Source: an uncultured Planctomycetia bacterium (lineage in GTDB: Bacteria > Omnitrophota > Gorgyraeia > JABMRN01 > RBG-13-46-9). Taken from it: a DNA stretch of 64,000 nt. Shown here piece after piece: positions 19,347-63,841 of the stretch. Both the position numbers and the translations under genes were made by a program. The DNA lies in contig CAZYPU010000004.1 in assembly GCA_964649665.1 (NCBI GenBank), forward strand, positions 511 through 64,510, in the 5' to 3' direction. How positions within the stretch are numbered: position 1 is the first letter of the stretch; each line of letters opens with the position of its first letter. The notes below the pieces were generated by a model. The model was not told where the DNA came from, did no database searches, and was given only the letters and a program-made list of their open reading frames with translations.

Positions 19347-19423
19347 TGGTAGCGGGGGAGAGATTCGAACTCTCGACACTGCGGGTATGAGCCGCATGCT
19401 CTAACCAGCTGAGCTACCCCGCC
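19347..19423 (-). tRNA. tRNA with CAU anticodon (elongator Met or lysidine-dependent Ile2; not resolvable by eye), CCA encoded
   Basis: Reverse complement is GGCGGGGTAGCTCAGCTGGTTAGAGCATGCGGCTCATACCCGCAGTGTCGAGAGTTCGAATCTCTCCCCCGCTACCA. Cloverleaf folds. The anticodon stem lacks the initiator GGG/CCC. Confidence 0.9.
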
Positions 19424-31395: not shown

Positions 31396-31468
31396 GCGGC
31401 ATTTATTTCAAGGGACCGTTCCGCTTTCTCCTTATTTTTATGCCTTTTTCCGTAAACAGCTCGCACAA

Positions 31469-31505
31469 CAGGACTCCCTACAGCCACTTGCCAGCGGCTC
31501 ACACA
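31469..31505. repeat. solo arm of the rod-like element family
   Basis: CAGGACTCCCTACAGCCACTTGCCAGCGGCTCACACA is near-identical to the reverse complement of 31750-31786. Confidence 0.7.
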
Positions 31506-31577
31506 ATCAGGGCAAGGTGCCTGGCACCTCAGGGCACCTCTCGCAAACTCTACCAAAGCTTTTGGGGATGTACTTTG

Positions 31578-31786
31578 CAGGACTCTCTTTGGTCATTTGC
31601 CAAGCGGCGAATGCTCTCGACCGTAGAAGTTCGCAATTTGCGAATCGGACATGCAGAGGAAGTCTCTGAGTTAAAGGTTAAAACTAACATACACACCTTC
31701 CGATTAGCAAATTGCAGAAATTCAAGGGAGAGAGCTTTACGCAATTTTTTGTGTGAGCCGCTGGCAAGTGACCAAAGGGAGTCCTG
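31578..31786. repeat. 209-nt rod-like palindromic element, copy A
   Basis: ~30-bp terminal stem (CAGGACTCTCTTTGGTCATTTGCCAAGCGGC / GCCGCTGGCAAGTGACCAAAGGGAGTCCTG). Conserved core motifs CGACCGTAGAA, AATTTGCGAATCGGA, TCCGATTAGCAAATTGCAGAAATTCAAGGGAGAGAGC. Confidence 0.8.
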
Positions 31787-31833
31787 CCTCAATCGCGCCT
31801 GTGAAGGGAAGTAAAAAAAAGTTAAAAAAACCC

Positions 31834-31861
31834 TTGACAAAAAATTTATTTATGGTATAGT
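31834..31861 (+). promoter_or_regulatory. sigma70-type promoter upstream of the LAGLIDADG-like ORF / tRNA-Thr / tuf
   Basis: TTGACA (31834-31839), 16 nt spacer, TATAGT (31856-31861). Confidence 0.55.
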
Positions 31862-31914: not shown

Positions 31915-32586
31915 ATGCAACTACGCGATATCGTAGTAAGTTACGAAAAGGGAAATTCCATAAACGAGATAGCTTCCGCGTTCGGCCTCTCGACGAGGAA
32001 GATCAGGGGCATATTATCCACTAATAATATAGTCATGCGAAATCACAAAGAAGCCTCATACCTAAAAAACAACAAAGACGGCGACCCGTTCGACATATTG
32101 ACCGAACTTACGCCGGAAGAAGAGCACCTGAAAGCAATGGCGCTCGGGCTTTACCTTACGGAAGGAAACACAAAAAACAAAAATTCCGTACGCTTTTCCA
32201 ATTCGGACCCGGCGCTTGTAAAGATATTCGTTAAATTTTTAAAAGCTGTCTGTGGTGTTGAAAATGACAAGATAAGGATGTCGTTAATCGTGTATCCGGA
32301 TGTCCCGCAAAAAGCGGCAAGGGAGTACTGGGCGAATTTCCTGGGTCTTCCAATAATTCAGTTTACGAAAACAACCGTTTTAAAAAACAGGAGTAACCAC
32401 AGTTCAAAAAGACACTCGGAATTCGGCACCATTACTATATATGTGCACAATACAAAGCTCCTGGGTATCATAAAAGAGTGGGCGCGGGAATATGCCCATA
32501 TAGCTCAGTTGGTAGAGCACATCCATGGTAAGGATGAGGTCGTCGGTTCAACCCCGACTGTGGGCTCCGCTATTAAAAGGAGGTAA
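31915..32586 (+). CDS. HTH plus LAGLIDADG-like (homing-endonuclease-like) protein; the 3' end reads through tRNA-Thr
   Basis: N-terminal HTH ([22 protein letters not shown]). [13 protein letters not shown] followed by [18 protein letters not shown] resembles a single LAGLIDADG motif and core. There is no stop codon before the tRNA at 32494. Confidence 0.45.
32494..32566 (+). tRNA. tRNA-Thr (anticodon GGU)
   Basis: GCCCATATAGCTCAGTTGGTAGAGCACATCCATGGTAAGGATGAGGTCGTCGGTTCAACCCCGACTGTGGGCT. Lies 22 nt upstream of tuf. Confidence 0.92.
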
Positions 32587-32588
32587 AG

Positions 32589-33785
32589 ATGGCTAAAGCA
32601 AAATTTGAACGCACAAAGCCGCACGTAAATGTCGGCACAATAGGGCACATAGATCACGGAAAGACCTGCCTTACGAGCGCCATAACCCAGGTCCTCGCAT
32701 TAAAGGGCCAGTCAACCGCGAAAACCTATGCGGAAATCGCGAAAGGCGGAGCCGTAAGGGATAAGTCAAAGATTCTCACCATAGCGGTCGCGCACGTGGA
32801 ATACGAAACAGAAAAGCGCCATTACGCGCATATCGACTGCCCGGGCCACGCAGACTATATAAAGAACATGATAACGGGAGCGGCCCAGATGGACGGAGCG
32901 ATCCTTGTCGTATCGGCGGCCGACGGCCCGATGCCCCAGACAAGGGAGCACATTCTTCTTGCAAGGCAGGTAAATGTGCCCGCGATAGTAGTATTTTTAA
33001 ACAAGGTAGACCTCGTAGACGACAAGGAGCTGCTTGACCTTGTGGAGCTTGAAGTAAGGGAGCTTCTCACGAAGTACAAGTTCCCGGGAGAGAAAACACC
33101 CGTCGTAAAGGGAAGCGCGCTTAAAGCTATGCAGAAACCCGAAGACGCGGAAGCCGCAAAGCCCATATTCGAGCTCCTGAAAGCGGTAGACGATTTCATC
33201 CCTATCCCAAAAAGAGACATCGACAAACCTTTCTTAATGCCAATCGAAGACGTATTCTCAATCACCGGAAGGGGAACTGTCGGCACGGGCCGCGTGGAAA
33301 GGGGCCAGGTAAAAACGGGGGAAGAGATTGAAATCGTGGGTCTTAAAGACACAAAAAAAAGCATCGTAACAGGCGTTGAGATGTTCAGGAAGATCCTGGA
33401 CTCGGGCCAGGCAGGGGATAATATAGGAGTCCTCTTAAGAGGCGTTGAGAAAAAAGACCTCATGCGCGGACAGGTCCTCGCAAAGCCCGGAACCATAAAA
33501 CCGCATAAAAATTGCAAGGGCGAGGCCTACATCCTGACCAAAGAGGAAGGCGGCCGCCACACGCCGTTTTTTAACGGCTACAGGCCGCAGTTCTACTTCA
33601 GGACCACCGACGTAACCGGATCCGTCACGCTTCCCAAGGATGTCGAAATGGTTATGCCGGGTGACAACGTTACGGTAGAAATAAGCCTCATAGAGCCCAT
33701 CGCTATGGAAAAGGGTCTGAGGTTCGCTATACGCGAAGGCGGCCACACCGTCGGCGCGGGCGTAATAACGGAGATAAACGAGTAA
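32589..33785 (+). CDS. tuf: elongation factor Tu
   Basis: [26 protein letters not shown]. 398 aa. Confidence 0.97.
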
Positions 33786-48975: not shown

Positions 48976-49219
48976 ACAAGAAGAAGAAAGCCGGGGTTCT
49001 GTCTGCAAAAAAATTTTTCATCCACTCCTAATTCATGACCGTCTTTTACCTCGCTTTTTAGAGGGGATGGCGGAACTCGCCCCACACCCAATGGTGTGGG
49101 GCTCAAACAACCGCCATCCTTTTTGTATCAAAACTTGTTACAAAGAAAACCTCTAAAAATCTCGGATAAAAGACTAAAATTTTTCAATTGCATCCAGACC
49201 CCCGGCTTTCTTCTTCTTG
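48976..49219. repeat. 244-nt rod-like palindromic element downstream of rplQ
   Basis: Perfect 21-bp terminal inverted repeat ACAAGAAGAAGAAAGCCGGGG / CCCCGGCTTTCTTCTTCTTGT. Inner pairings TTTTTAGAGG/CCTCTAAAAA and GTCTTTTA/TAAAAGAC. Apical nested hairpin GGATGGCGG..CCCCACACC-CAAT-GGTGTGGGG..CCGCCATCC. Confidence 0.75.
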
Positions 49220-49315
49220 TAGCAGCGATGCCGCTTGGCAGGCATCGCCCGGAGGCTTATTCAACACCGCCTCCTGACTACTCCCATTCCCTTTCTTTTC
49301 TCTTCGTTAATAAGG

Positions 49316-49388
49316 CTAAGGTGCCTGGTTTACCGGAGGTGCCAGGCACCCCTGGTAAACTCATCTAAGGTGCCAGGCACCTCCGGTA
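49316..49388. repeat. cluster of GGTGCC(W)GGCACC palindromes
   Basis: CTAAGGTGCC at 49316 and 49366. GGTGCCAGGCACC at 49338 and 49369. 13-bp inverted repeat TACCGGAGGTGCC (49331) / GGCACCTCCGGTA (49376). Confidence 0.7.
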
Positions 49389-49512
49389 CTGAGCGTAGTC
49401 AAGGACCACAAAATTCGCCGGAAGGGCGCTTACTGCCGGATGTCGCTTCACTTTTCGCTTGTTTATACAATAATATTATGATATATTAGAAAGGCTATAC
49501 GGAGGAGAGCAT

Positions 49513-60888: not shown

Positions 60889-61097
60889 ATATAAGCCTCC
60901 GGGGGTACTTGCCGGCGGCTCACACAAAAAGTTGTGTAAAGCTCTCTCCCTCGAATTTCTGCAATTTGCTAATCGGAAGGTGTGAATATTAGCCTTCGTC
61001 CTCTTCGTAGTTTACCCCTGTATGTCCGATTCGCAAATTATGAAATTCTACGGTCGAGAGCATTCACCGCCTGGCAAGTACCCCCGGAGGCTTATAT
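60889..61097. repeat. 209-nt rod-like palindromic element, copy B1 (inverted relative to copy A)
   Basis: Terminal stem ATATAAGCCTCCGGGGGTACTTGCC / GGCAAGTACCCCCGGAGGCTTATAT. The reverse complement aligns with copy A across both conserved core blocks. Confidence 0.8.
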
Positions 61098-61118
61098 TAT
61101 CGTGGACTTTTATTTCCT

Positions 61119-61266
61119 AAGGGGACGTTTCACTTTGTCCTAACTCTTTATGTGGCAATGAGTTACGAGCGGTCGTTTTCCACTCTTTTACACCTTGCAA
61201 TCCGGAAAACGACGTGTTGTAACCCCTGTACTGACAACGAGTTATATCAAAGTGAAACGTCCCCTT
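61119..61266. repeat. 148-nt palindromic element: 19-bp outer stem enclosing three hairpins, followed by a T-run
   Basis: AAGGGGACGTTTCACTTTG / CAAAGTGAAACGTCCCCTT. Inner hairpins TAACTC..GAGTTA, GTCGTTTTCC..GGAAAACGAC, GTTGT..ACAAC. Confidence 0.75.
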
Positions 61267-61273
61267 TTTCTTT

Positions 61274-61478
61274 AAGACAGGATGAGGCGCAGGGCTCCGG
61301 CGAATATTTTCGACCGTAGAATTTAGTAATTTGCGAAATTGCAATACCAGAAAATGCCATGCAGCTCTGCTGCAGGGCCACTCCTTTTGTGCAATGAGCA
61401 AATTGCATAAATTCAAGGGAAAAAATCTTGGCATAATTTTTTATGCTGAGCCGGAGACCCTGCGCCTCATCCTGTCTT
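61274..61478. repeat. 205-nt rod-like palindromic element, copy B3 (divergent, same orientation as copy A)
   Basis: Terminal stem AAGACAGGATGAGGCGCAGGGCTCCGGC / GCCGGAGACCCTGCGCCTCATCCTGTCTT. Core CGACCGTAGAATTTAGTAATTTGCGAA and AGCAAATTGCATAAATTCAAGGGA. Confidence 0.8.
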
Positions 61479-61511
61479 TCCTGGTACAGATATCGCTCAA
61501 TACATTTTTTG

Positions 61512-61540
61512 TTGACAAATACGGGGGGATTTGATATTAT
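61512..61540 (+). promoter_or_regulatory. sigma70-type promoter for the cobalamin riboswitch / receptor transcript
   Basis: TTGACA (61512-61517), 17 nt spacer, TATTAT (61535-61540). Confidence 0.55.
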
Positions 61541-61564
61541 ACAACCGCTCTTTAACATTACGTT

Positions 61565-61729
61565 CTATACAGGTGCCCGTTGAGGGCTTGAAAAGGGAAG
61601 CTCGTTTAAATCGAGCGCGGTCCCGCCGCTGTAATCGGGGACGAAACCACAGTGAGCCACTTATCGCATTTCGCGATTGGGAAGGCGTGGAAGTAGAAGG
61701 ATCCGAGAGTCAGAAGACCTGCCTGTATA
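61565..61729 (+). promoter_or_regulatory. cobalamin (B12) riboswitch aptamer
   Basis: P1 TATACAGG/CCTGTATA. GGTGCC..AAAAGGGAAG. GCGCGGTCCCGCCGCTGTAATCGGGGA (consensus CCCGCCACUGU-like). B12 box GAGTCAGAAGACCTGCC at 61707-61723. Confidence 0.85.
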
Positions 61730-61776
61730 TTAAGGTGTCGCCGGAACACCGCATATAAGGGATGAAGAAAACGGGT

Positions 61777-61831: not shown

Positions 61832-63841
61832 TTGAAGAAAATATTTTTAATTTTGTTCGCGTGTTTCTTAAGCATCGGATTTGTTTTTGCCGAGGAGAAA
61901 GATGAAGAGAAAAGCCTTTTAGGTGATACAAAACTGGATAAAGTTATTAAAGCTTTAATCGACCCTATGGAAAAAGTGGTTTCTCCTATTATGGAATTAG
62001 GCACTATCGTCGTGACACCTACTAAAACTAAGGAAAAATTAGGCGCTCAGTCAAGCGCCGTCACCGTAATAGGAGAAACAGAATTCTATAGAGAAAAGGC
62101 GGATTACGTTAAGGATGTCTTGAAAAACGAAATGGGTTTGGATGTTGTGGAAAGCGGGGCGTTTACGGGGCAAACGTCGGTTTTTATGCGGGGGGCCAAC
62201 TCAAACCAGACGCTGGTTATGATCGATGGGGTAAAGGTATATGATCCCACTTCACCAAACGGGGCATTTAACCTCGCTCATTTGACGCTGGACAATCTTG
62301 AGCGAATCGAAATAGTGCGGGGCTCGCAAAGTACATTGTACGGCTCCGATGCAATGGGCGGCGTTATAAATATTATAACCAAGAAAGCGGAGAAAGCATT
62401 TTTTAACGGTTTTTTCGAAACAGGCGCGTTTTCGACATTCAGGGAAGGTTTTGACATGGGTGCGAAAACGCACGGATTCCACTACACCATAGGAGGATCT
62501 TTTGTCAAAAGCCGGGGCATATCCCAGGCGCAGGCTAAAAACAATAATCCCGAACTTGACGGATATGAACAATACGCTCTTTCGGCGAGAGTGGATTATG
62601 ATGTTAACGAAGACCTTACGGTGGGGGGAACGTTCAGAAATACCTCTACACTTTTTCATTATGATCAGGGGAGGCGTGATGATGCCGATTTGTACCAGAA
62701 AGATTTCCAGACGCTTTTTACACAATATGTTGAGCACAAACCGGTTGATTTTTATAGTTATTACATAAAGCTGGGGTGGATGAATACGTTTCGAAGAGAC
62801 GCTGACGGAAATAGCGGCGGCGCCACAGACTATCTGCGAGACTGGTATAAAGGTTATGAGTTCAGGCTCGATTACAGGAACAATATTCACCTGTTCGACG
62901 TAGACACCTTTACCATCGGTTACGAGTTTACCAAGGAAATTGGCGATTCCTATTATTTCGTAGCGTGGGGTCCGGGCGTTGCGCAGAACAGCGAAAGCGA
63001 CATGCCCAAAGTTTTTTCAAGGAACCACGCGCTCTATCTACAAAATAGGCTTAACTTTCGCGATCGGTTAACGGCGACTCAGGGCATGAGGATAGATTGC
63101 CACTCTCTTGCCGGGACACACATAACTTACAAGGTGGATGGCTCCTATCTTTTTCCTACAGGAACAAAGGTAAGGGGAGGATGGGCAACTGGTTTTAAAG
63201 CGCCGACGCTTTATCAGCTCAATGCCACTTTGGTATTGCCCCAATGGGGGTGGTTTGGCTTCGGCGGCGGAAACCCCAATCTCGAACCCGAAACAAGCAA
63301 TTCTTATGAAATCGGCCTGGACCAGTACGCTTTCGGGGAAAAGCTTTTGTTACACGCAACTTACTTCCATTACATGTTTCACAGCCTGATAGGTACGACC
63401 ATGGACGCGAGGTTCAATGTTTCGCAATATCGAAATCTGGGCAAGGCCCATTCGCACGGCATTGAATGCGGAACGAAATTTAAGCCACTGGATAATTTCG
63501 AAGCGAGGTTTTCCTATACCTATGATTACACCAAGGATTACAGTACCGACAGGCCTTTGCTCCGAAGACCTCAGCATAAATTTAAAATAAATACCTATTG
63601 GGAAATAGTCCCAAAGTGGAATGTGAACCTCGAAATCCGATATAGCGGCTTACGCTATGATAGTAATGTTGACAAAATGAAGCCCTATGCAGTTGTTGAT
63701 TTTAATACCGACTACAACCTACTAAAAAATCTAAACGTTTATTTAAAGGTCGCCAACTTGTTTGATAAGCGCTACGAAGAGGTAAGGGGTTACGGAACAA
63801 GTCCTTTCGCCGTATATGTAGGTACAAAAGCTGAATTTTAA
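61832..63841 (+). CDS. btuB: TonB-dependent outer-membrane receptor, BtuB-like
   Basis: TTG start. Signal peptide. Plug-domain motifs (IVVTPTK, VFMRGANSNQTLVMIDGVKVYD, IEIVRGSQSTLYGSDAMGGVINIIT). C-terminal Phe. Lies downstream of the B12 riboswitch. Confidence 0.85.
   Translation: MKKIFLILFACFLSIGFVFAEEKDEEKSLLGDTKLDKVIKALIDPMEKVVSPIMELGTIVVTPTKTKEKLGAQSSAVTVIGETEFYREKADYVKDVLKNEMGLDVVESGAFTGQTSVFMRGANSNQTLVMIDGVKVYDPTSPNGAFNLAHLTLDNLERIEIVRGSQSTLYGSDAMGGVINIITKKAEKAFFNGFFETGAFSTFREGFDMGAKTHGFHYTIGGSFVKSRGISQAQAKNNNPELDGYEQYALSARVDYDVNEDLTVGGTFRNTSTLFHYDQGRRDDADLYQKDFQTLFTQYVEHKPVDFYSYYIKLGWMNTFRRDADGNSGGATDYLRDWYKGYEFRLDYRNNIHLFDVDTFTIGYEFTKEIGDSYYFVAWGPGVAQNSESDMPKVFSRNHALYLQNRLNFRDRLTATQGMRIDCHSLAGTHITYKVDGSYLFPTGTKVRGGWATGFKAPTLYQLNATLVLPQWGWFGFGGGNPNLEPETSNSYEIGLDQYAFGEKLLLHATYFHYMFHSLIGTTMDARFNVSQYRNLGKAHSHGIECGTKFKPLDNFEARFSYTYDYTKDYSTDRPLLRRPQHKFKINTYWEIVPKWNVNLEIRYSGLRYDSNVDKMKPYAVVDFNTDYNLLKNLNVYLKVANLFDKRYEEVRGYGTSPFAVYVGTKAEF

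Follow-up and report, generated by a model that had tools for sequence, protein, structure and literature searches.

We found that the window analysed here, a 64,000-nt stretch lying on a 65-kb contig of a metagenome-assembled genome (MAG), carries three full copies of an element of ~200 nt whose centre is strongly conserved and whose ends vary in sequence yet stay paired. The element is an asymmetric three-way-junction rod and not a symmetric palindrome, since every copy has a side hairpin on its 3′ arm together with asymmetric internal loops, and one particular strand is the selected folded form, which fits an RNA and also fits a single-stranded DNA (ssDNA). As the best explanation, to which we give about even chances, we propose an undescribed family of non-autonomous, rod-shaped intergenic repeats, similar to REPINs and MITEs and recognised through the core. 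The window comes from a Candidatus Omnitrophota MAG, and every one of the nearest named homologues of its TonB-dependent receptor belongs to Candidatus Omnitrophota.

Copies in the window and their fold

The first-pass annotation of this DNA had described three elements of ~205-209 nt, and all three were recovered by folding, nhmmer and a covariance model, each containing the core blocks that had been quoted: copy A (209 nt, 31578-31786, sense on the + strand), copy B1 (209 nt, 60889-61097, sense on the - strand) and copy B3 (205 nt, 61274-61478, sense on the + strand). Searches with nhmmer and a covariance model of the 123-nt core returned no further full copy within the 64-kb window, which holds in total three full copies and two remnants. 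One remnant, a 38-nt piece of 3′ arm in the opposite orientation (31469-31506, - strand), lies 72 nt upstream of A and consists of an A-type outer stem followed by GAGCCGC and TTGTGTG, 89% identical in reverse to positions 172-209 of A. The other (49236-49260, - strand; TGGCAGGCATCGCCCGGAGGCTTAT, with 0 occurrences expected by chance) is the probable solo end of a B1-type copy and adjoins the hairpin element X. A and B1 were 84% identical over positions 20-196, and B3 has only the two core strands in common with them. The locus of copy A was also present in a JGI contig (L018).

Each copy had been said to fold end to end into one long hairpin, and the folds agree, with minimum free energies far beyond those of shuffled controls (A, -114.1 kcal/mol, z -12.0; B1, -110.3 kcal/mol, z -11.0; B3, -110.5 kcal/mol, z -13.5). 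Copy A was equally exceptional when folded with DNA parameters (z -12.4). The label 'rod-like' is apt for this long end-to-end hairpin, but the structure is not a plain rod, having the 3′-arm side hairpin and the asymmetric internal loops.

The outer stem, P1, measures 17-30 bp; its innermost CGGC/GCCG is conserved, its middle part is common within subfamilies and its outermost part is subfamily-specific. In copy A the 5′ arm of P1 (31578-31608, + strand) pairs with the 3′ arm (31756-31786, + strand), two U·G wobbles included, and the inner part of this 5′ arm, TTGCCAAGCGGC (+ strand), is common to B1 and the metagenomic copy L014, the sequence outside it being copy- or subfamily-specific. Inside P1 lies the three-way junction, with joining strands GAAU, UUU and GA. 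From there, P2 (CUYUC/GARAG, with CG-to-UA covariation) is followed by a tandem GA/GA loop, a 2-bp CC/GG step and a 3x2 loop, GUA/RA, and both of these internal loops are invariant in all copies. Next come P4, a 16-bp helix (GAAKUY..AAUUUGC over GCAAAUU..RAAUUC), a GAA/(U)GA loop, P5, a helix of 5-8 bp with full covariation (UCGGA, AUUGCA, GUUUG and UUAAAAAA), and a variable apex of 45-110 nt. The 5′ core strand of copy A, TCGACCGTAGAAGTTCGCAATTTGCGAA (31617-31644, + strand), contains GTAG, includes invariant columns and has GA and GUA as unpaired loop residues, while its 3′ core strand, TAGCAAATTGCAGAAATTCAAGGGAGAGA (31705-31733, + strand), has RA and GA as unpaired loop residues.

The third arm of the junction is P3, a small side hairpin on the 3′ arm only (ACACAA-UUUU-UUGUGU), folding in copy A from ACGCAATTTTTTGTGT (31739-31754, + strand). 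A side hairpin of the ACACAAUUUUUUGUGU type was found in every copy and shows a CG-to-UA compensatory pair (alignment columns 210/308); in the closed Omnitrophota genome L001 its loop carries a nested hairpin of ~95 nt. The two arms of the element are ~70% alike as inverted repeats, and the differences between the arms are themselves invariant across lineages. On one arm only, CCGTAGAA stands before the 16-bp helix in nine copies, the tag being TTAG in L014 and ATAG in a divergent copy in L011. Only copy A has a perfect version of the local palindrome TTCGCAA-T-TTGCGAA, which the other copies do not conserve. We rejected a kink-turn reading of the GUA/RA loop, as GAAUU has its G paired with C, within a Watson-Crick helix that covaries.

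Conservation, covariation and strand asymmetry

Mean pairwise identity across eight lineage-level copies was 90% in the 5′ core strand and 84% in the 3′ core strand, 36% in the apex, and 27 and 33% in the two outer stem arms (outer 30 nt). In the core alignment, 95% of the pair cells held standard pairs, versus 22-51% when partners were slid by 1-3 columns; changes on both sides were seen in 9 of 28 pairs, and the observed covariation score was reached by 0 of 500 shuffles. Double changes affected 14 of the 38 pairs of the full alignment, and compensatory changes occur in all helices; because some of the ~11 copies available, from ~6 lineages, are related, neither these counts nor the G·U counts given below are independent events. 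B1 and L014, which come from different samples, differ in their 18-bp outermost stem by three double substitutions that restore pairing and by one change left uncompensated. Such compensatory changes confirm the earlier impression that pairing is kept despite sequence change.

Taking as sense the strand with GACCGTAGAA on the 5′ arm, we found the sense fold to be the more stable one in 9 of 9 canonical copies; the divergent L011 copy was the exception, its antisense fold being slightly more stable (-103.1 versus -100.7 kcal/mol). The long-range stems of the sense strand hold 19 G·U versus 2 A·C oppositions and those of the antisense fold 4 versus 7, an asymmetry (binomial p ~2e-4) that is indicative only, the copies not all being independent. 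This excess of G·U over A·C on the sense strand indicates that one specific single strand is the selected folded form. The wobbles of A lie on the + strand and those of B1 on the - strand, and the bias thus follows the orientation of the element rather than the chromosome strand, which makes a mere mutational bias of the replication strand less plausible. In ssDNA, too, G·T is the mildest and best-tolerated mismatch, and for this reason the asymmetry does not single out RNA.

Genomic context

The copies lie next to housekeeping genes, namely groES/EL, leuCDB-asd, a putative MoxR-type ATPase operon (assigned by sequence) and btuB, and no conserved neighbouring gene was found among 10 copies, of which four are co-oriented with their neighbours and six antisense. 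Several copies are only ~20-45 nt from both flanking genes, and some sit in operon spacers, antisense to both neighbours. None of the 10 copies is flanked by a target-site duplication (TSD), and neither a conserved flank nor a flanking target motif was seen at the copies examined. Consensus scans gave no element-owned promoter upstream, and no terminator downstream, of A, B1 and B3; strong promoters of the form TTGACA-N16/17-TATAGT/TATTAT, at 31834 and 61512, drive the downstream operons.

Within the window the family is confined to three mosaic clusters (31400-31790, 48976-49390 and 60889-61478), which also hold the elements B2 and X and a REP-like 16-mer, and strain contigs break inside the repeats. 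B2 (61118-61268, no strand assigned), flanked on either side by the 5′ ends of B1 and B3, is an unrelated hairpin repeat, a mosaic partner and not a family member. The composite of B2 and B3 with 23 nt of right flank recurs at 98% identity in the metagenomic contig L011 (448-835), with unrelated flanks beyond, and such near-identity at two loci, a recent duplication, supports repeat DNA. Compared with near-identical strain contigs over 2.8 kb, all four SNPs fell inside B3 (61279, 61347, 61355 and 61405); in a second set all five fell inside tuf (32840-32966), a gene apparently in two copies as judged from SNP clustering alone. The confinement of SNPs to repeated sequence suggests gene conversion or cross-copy assembly mixing.

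A relative (L022) has the same arrangement of promoter, ORF, tRNA-Thr and tuf as that beside copy A and no element there; its upstream gene content differs, and no junction is definable. No family member was present in loci of 18-22 kb from closer relatives, whose BtuB is 65-69% identical. Two relatives with a syntenic CobO-btuB spacer (BtuB 67-69%) carry different long hairpins in that spacer (L027, 9444-9700; L031, 9100-9700), just upstream of the riboswitch promoter and unrelated to the element family, and Omnitrophota inter-operon spacers seem generally to be colonised by rod-like repeats. Taken together, the occurrence in both orientations, the operon-spacer positions, the mosaic clusters and the absence in a relative are the behaviour of repeat DNA and not of a conserved RNA gene.

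Among the annotated neighbours, in ~300 kb around the copies, we found no transposase, RAYT, Y1 or other candidate enzyme, and the copy-bearing loci held no autonomous IS with the same ends. Retron and bridge- or omega-RNA readings were discarded, as no RT, IS110, TnpB or IscB-type gene adjoins any copy.

Distribution beyond the window

An exact-pattern scan that took in one genome per species returned true copies in only two genomes, the closed Omnitrophota chromosome L001 and a MAG labelled Planctomycetia, which has four copies on three contigs (L002-L004) and whose LeuC, LeuD and LeuB are only 36-43% identical to those of the window (LeuC, 43%). Additional copies came from a metagenome scan (L008, L011 and L014, with a truncated one in L013); the collection scanned is incomplete, as the JGI contigs carrying copy A (L018) were missed, and prevalence is therefore underestimated. 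The remaining pattern matches (L005-L007, L009, L010, L012, L015 and L016) were chance hits with a single arm and no hairpin. Plasmid and phage collections gave no match by BLAST, and pattern scans of viral contigs gave no copy, their sole match (L017) being due to chance.

That the core is not a recognised RNA family, as first noted, was borne out by Rfam, which at the gathering threshold over the whole window gave no match on the elements and at E values up to 10 gave only noise of <17 bits. Hammerhead and other ribozymes, 5S, SRP and 6S RNA were set aside for want of an Rfam signal, and the junction strands of the element presumably do not fit any of them. The core sequence occurred in literature text only as unrelated primers, and a search for published descriptions of Omnitrophota structured RNAs or MITEs found nothing relevant.

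Alternative explanations

The first-pass annotation had offered insertion into pre-existing palindromes as one way to account for outermost stems of 17-25 bp that differ completely between copies. They do differ between A, B1 and B3, because the window samples three subfamilies, but every type has a counterpart at another site: L014 and L011 (1-262) have the B1 type, L011 (609-814) the B3 type and the partial arm at 31469-31506 the A type. The four copies of the Planctomycetia-labelled MAG have in common a diverging, compensated outer stem. Since the types recur at other loci and in other samples with compensatory changes, the stems belong to the element rather than to unique target palindromes, and, judging from these sequences, they are probably not target DNA. 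Similarity fades progressively towards the ends, with no sharp fixed junction, and the stems are seamless, lacking spacers or TSDs. In ~300 kb around the copies we saw neither a core-less version of any outer stem nor an empty palindrome. A model in which a short mobile core enters the middle of pre-existing palindromes, with outer stems supplied by the target, would be workable only with targets that formed a multi-copy palindrome family of their own, and we regard it as quite improbable. In its favour, nested palindromes are real in this genome (X is bare in L011 and lies inside an extra 33-bp inverted repeat in the window), and another palindrome, of 13 bp, encloses the L014 copy. The side-hairpin loop of L001 has received a hairpin insertion, and A and B1, whose outermost 17-25 bp show no relationship, agree over the 12 bp that follow inward. 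With nested palindromes nearby, palindrome insertion may still act as a secondary process.

An ordinary MITE, that is, a deletion derivative of an IS moved by a transposase that binds the terminal inverted repeats, would explain why the element is of this size, intergenic and multi-copy, with arms that are ~70% alike as inverted repeats. We consider it very improbable, as the pattern is indeed the reverse of a classical MITE, as had been suggested: the termini, unrelated between A, B1 and B3, are the least conserved part (27-33% identity versus 84-90% in the core), all 10 copies lack a TSD, and plasmid, phage and viral-contig collections are without a match. A symmetric transposase site would, moreover, not require the arm differences to be invariant across lineages, and the strand asymmetry likewise speaks against it. 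A stand-alone family of structured non-coding RNA genes, transcribed in sense as a ~200-nt three-way-junction rod with stems under selection at the RNA level and GA-rich internal loops that might bind a protein or another nucleic acid, must be taken seriously as a rival, given how elaborate the conserved loops and junction are, although on the whole we think it rather unlikely. It is favoured by the invariant unpaired residues and asymmetric side hairpin, kept between lineages with LeuC 43% identical, as well as by the compensatory changes in all helices, the G·U over A·C bias that follows element orientation and the greater stability of the sense fold in all nine canonical copies, and with no Rfam family matching, such an RNA would be new. 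Set against this are the lack of a promoter-like site upstream and of a 3′ terminator at A, B1 and B3, the two orientations with some copies antisense to both neighbours in operon spacers, the absence of the element from the comparable site in L022 and from the syntenic loci of other relatives, the remnants, nested insertions and mosaic clusters typical of repeat DNA, and the tolerance of G·T in ssDNA. The early proposal of a structured RNA under pairing selection is strengthened by the strand asymmetry and the conserved asymmetric loops and weakened by the failure to find a promoter or terminator of its own and by the repeat-DNA context. Unpaired loop residues and a three-way junction kept across lineages are more elaborate than what is known from REPs and MITEs and would also fit a dedicated RNA, and the two readings are not mutually exclusive.

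Proposed mechanism

If the family is, as we propose, one of non-autonomous repeats, its functional module would be the internal, asymmetric core of ~60 nt, made of two strands that form the 16-bp helix, flanked by the GA/GA, GUA/RA and GAA/GA loops, together with the 3′-arm side hairpin. This core would be read on one specific folded single strand, either as ssDNA during mobilisation or as a transcript. Pairing would be all that is needed of the outer stem (17-30 bp) and of the apical stem, which would only zip the rod and would for that reason drift and split into subfamilies. Within a genome, copies may spread or duplicate; between distant lineages, their spread may be patchy. They would accumulate in inter-operon spacers just upstream of strong promoters, nested or juxtaposed with other hairpin repeats, and read-through from neighbouring transcription would turn them into very stable RNA rods. 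Since no insertion junction, empty site or TSD was recovered, mobility is something that we infer rather than observe.

By analogy, the core could be read by a structure-specific enzyme of the HUH/Y1 type, RAYT or IS200-like (for the HUH context of IS200/IS605-type ssDNA-hairpin systems, see PMC6006769). Such an enzyme is a candidate because GTAG adjoins the hairpin; the motif serves as a lead only, since two copies deviate from it and the loci examined showed no enzyme of this kind. A further idea, which we hold to be unlikely but worth stating, is that the core is a new structured three-way-junction module, with tandem G·A and GUA/RA loops, read by a trans-acting protein. The module would then belong either to a new class of ssDNA-hairpin mobile element, recognised by an internal core and not by its ends, or to a new scaffold or regulatory RNA that repeat DNA carries and that passes between Omnitrophota and Planctomycetota.

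Were the proposal correct, the recognition logic of the family would be the reverse of that of MITEs and REPINs, with the centre conserved, the ends free and one folded strand selected, in a little-studied candidate phylum with small genomes. The family would offer a clean test case for distinguishing RNA-level from ssDNA-level selection on hairpin repeats, and the core could serve as bait for the enzyme or binding protein that reads it. On the practical side, these repeats break Omnitrophota metagenome assemblies and attract spurious ORF calls.

Comparison with known systems

The closest parallels are REPINs and REP-BIMEs, which are mobilised by RAYT, an HUH/Y1 transposase whose gene the repeats typically flank, and which carry a GTAG or CGTC tag beside the stem. 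Like the element, they are non-autonomous, multi-copy and intergenic, occur in both orientations and form a long hairpin as ssDNA or RNA; REP-BIMEs also share its placement in mosaic clusters. The non-recognition segments of the element vary yet stay paired, as in REPINs, where segments variable in sequence nevertheless preserve the hairpin (PMC3337134). The GTAG beside a stem of the element recalls the cleavage of ssDNA REPs at GTAG by RAYT (PMC3733652), although in the element it is on one arm only and not strict. The layout departs from that of a REPIN in having one conserved module, placed internally, as opposed to two terminal inverted REP units, each a short imperfect palindrome, and in arms that are not conserved small palindromes; the element also has 2-3 times the length, contains a three-way junction and keeps conserved loops of the GA type, and no RAYT was found in ~300 kb around its copies. 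Its layout is unlike that of a MITE because the ends are least conserved.

ERIC/IRU, the Correia elements of Neisseria, RUP and BOX are intergenic, imperfect palindromes of 100-200 bp that are co-transcribed and form RNA hairpins, and some of their variants carry internal insertions. When read through, REP, ERIC and Correia elements form very stable RNA rods. The element resembles ERIC/IRU, Correia, RUP and BOX as an intergenic imperfect-palindrome hairpin with internal-insertion variants. In these families the terminal inverted repeats are conserved, and TA or similar duplications of the target accompany several of them, whereas in the element the termini are most variable, there is no TSD and the core is common to very distant lineages.

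With rod-like Rfam RNAs such as 6S and SRP RNA, the element shares the long imperfect hairpin, the conserved internal loops and the covarying stems. 6S RNA, SRP RNA and the long-hairpin motifs of metagenomes come from single-copy genes that keep their synteny and have promoters of their own; the element, in contrast, is multi-copy and mosaic, its presence varies between genomes, and no Rfam model matches it.

Non-autonomous derivatives of IS200/IS605 (PATEs) and integron attC sites are recognised as a folded single strand, in a strand-specific manner, have conserved unpaired or extrahelical bases in their stems and require no terminal inverted repeats. The element is similarly strand-specific, with conserved unpaired bases in the stem, and by analogy may likewise be recognised as a folded strand. 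The ends of IS200/IS605 are two different short subterminal hairpins, with a conserved tetra- or pentanucleotide target 5′ of the left one, whereas the element is one rod of ~200 nt without distinct left and right subterminal hairpins or a conserved flanking target motif. attC sites conserve their outer R and L boxes and vary inside, the opposite of the layout seen here, with its conserved core and variable outside.

Other features of the window

B2, the mosaic partner of B1 and B3, is a separate hairpin repeat of ~150 nt (z -8.2) with a second copy in L011 (448-600), beside B3 there, and a left-arm remnant at 31405-31445, following the stop codon of an 856-aa gene that lies upstream of copy A. 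Element X (48976-49220) is a nested palindrome, a hairpin inside a hairpin: its inner hairpin of ~138 nt (49036-49173) is homologous to the bare copy in L011 (297-430), and the surrounding 33-bp inverted repeat (48976-49008 / 49188-49220) is absent from L011. The REP-like 16-mer palindrome AAGGTGCCWGGCACCT has three sites (31514-31530, 49336-49352 and 49367-49383; 0.02 expected by chance), all inside the hairpin-repeat clusters and nowhere else in the window.

A 46-aa ORF (MSKLHKFKG...) called by JGI on the 3′ arm of B3 (L019, 234-374, equivalent to 61394-61534 of the window) is most likely a spurious call on the repeat, because a protein search gave no match but the ORF itself. Downstream of copy A, between the promoter at 31834-31861 and tRNA-Thr/tuf, lies a conserved ORF of ~220 aa (31915-32586; 14173-14838 in L022), which overlaps the tRNA gene, is called in the relative L022 and was left uncalled by JGI in L018. 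Pfam returned only weak N-terminal HTH matches for it, and part of it resembles, by eye, a putative homing-endonuclease motif.

All plausible protein genes of the window (1-64000) lie on the + strand, and only tRNA-Met (19347-19423) lies on the - strand. Downstream of B3, the TTGACA-N17-TATTAT promoter at 61512 precedes a cobalamin riboswitch (61554-61740, 113 bits), which stands ahead of the TonB-dependent, BtuB-like receptor gene (61832-63841).
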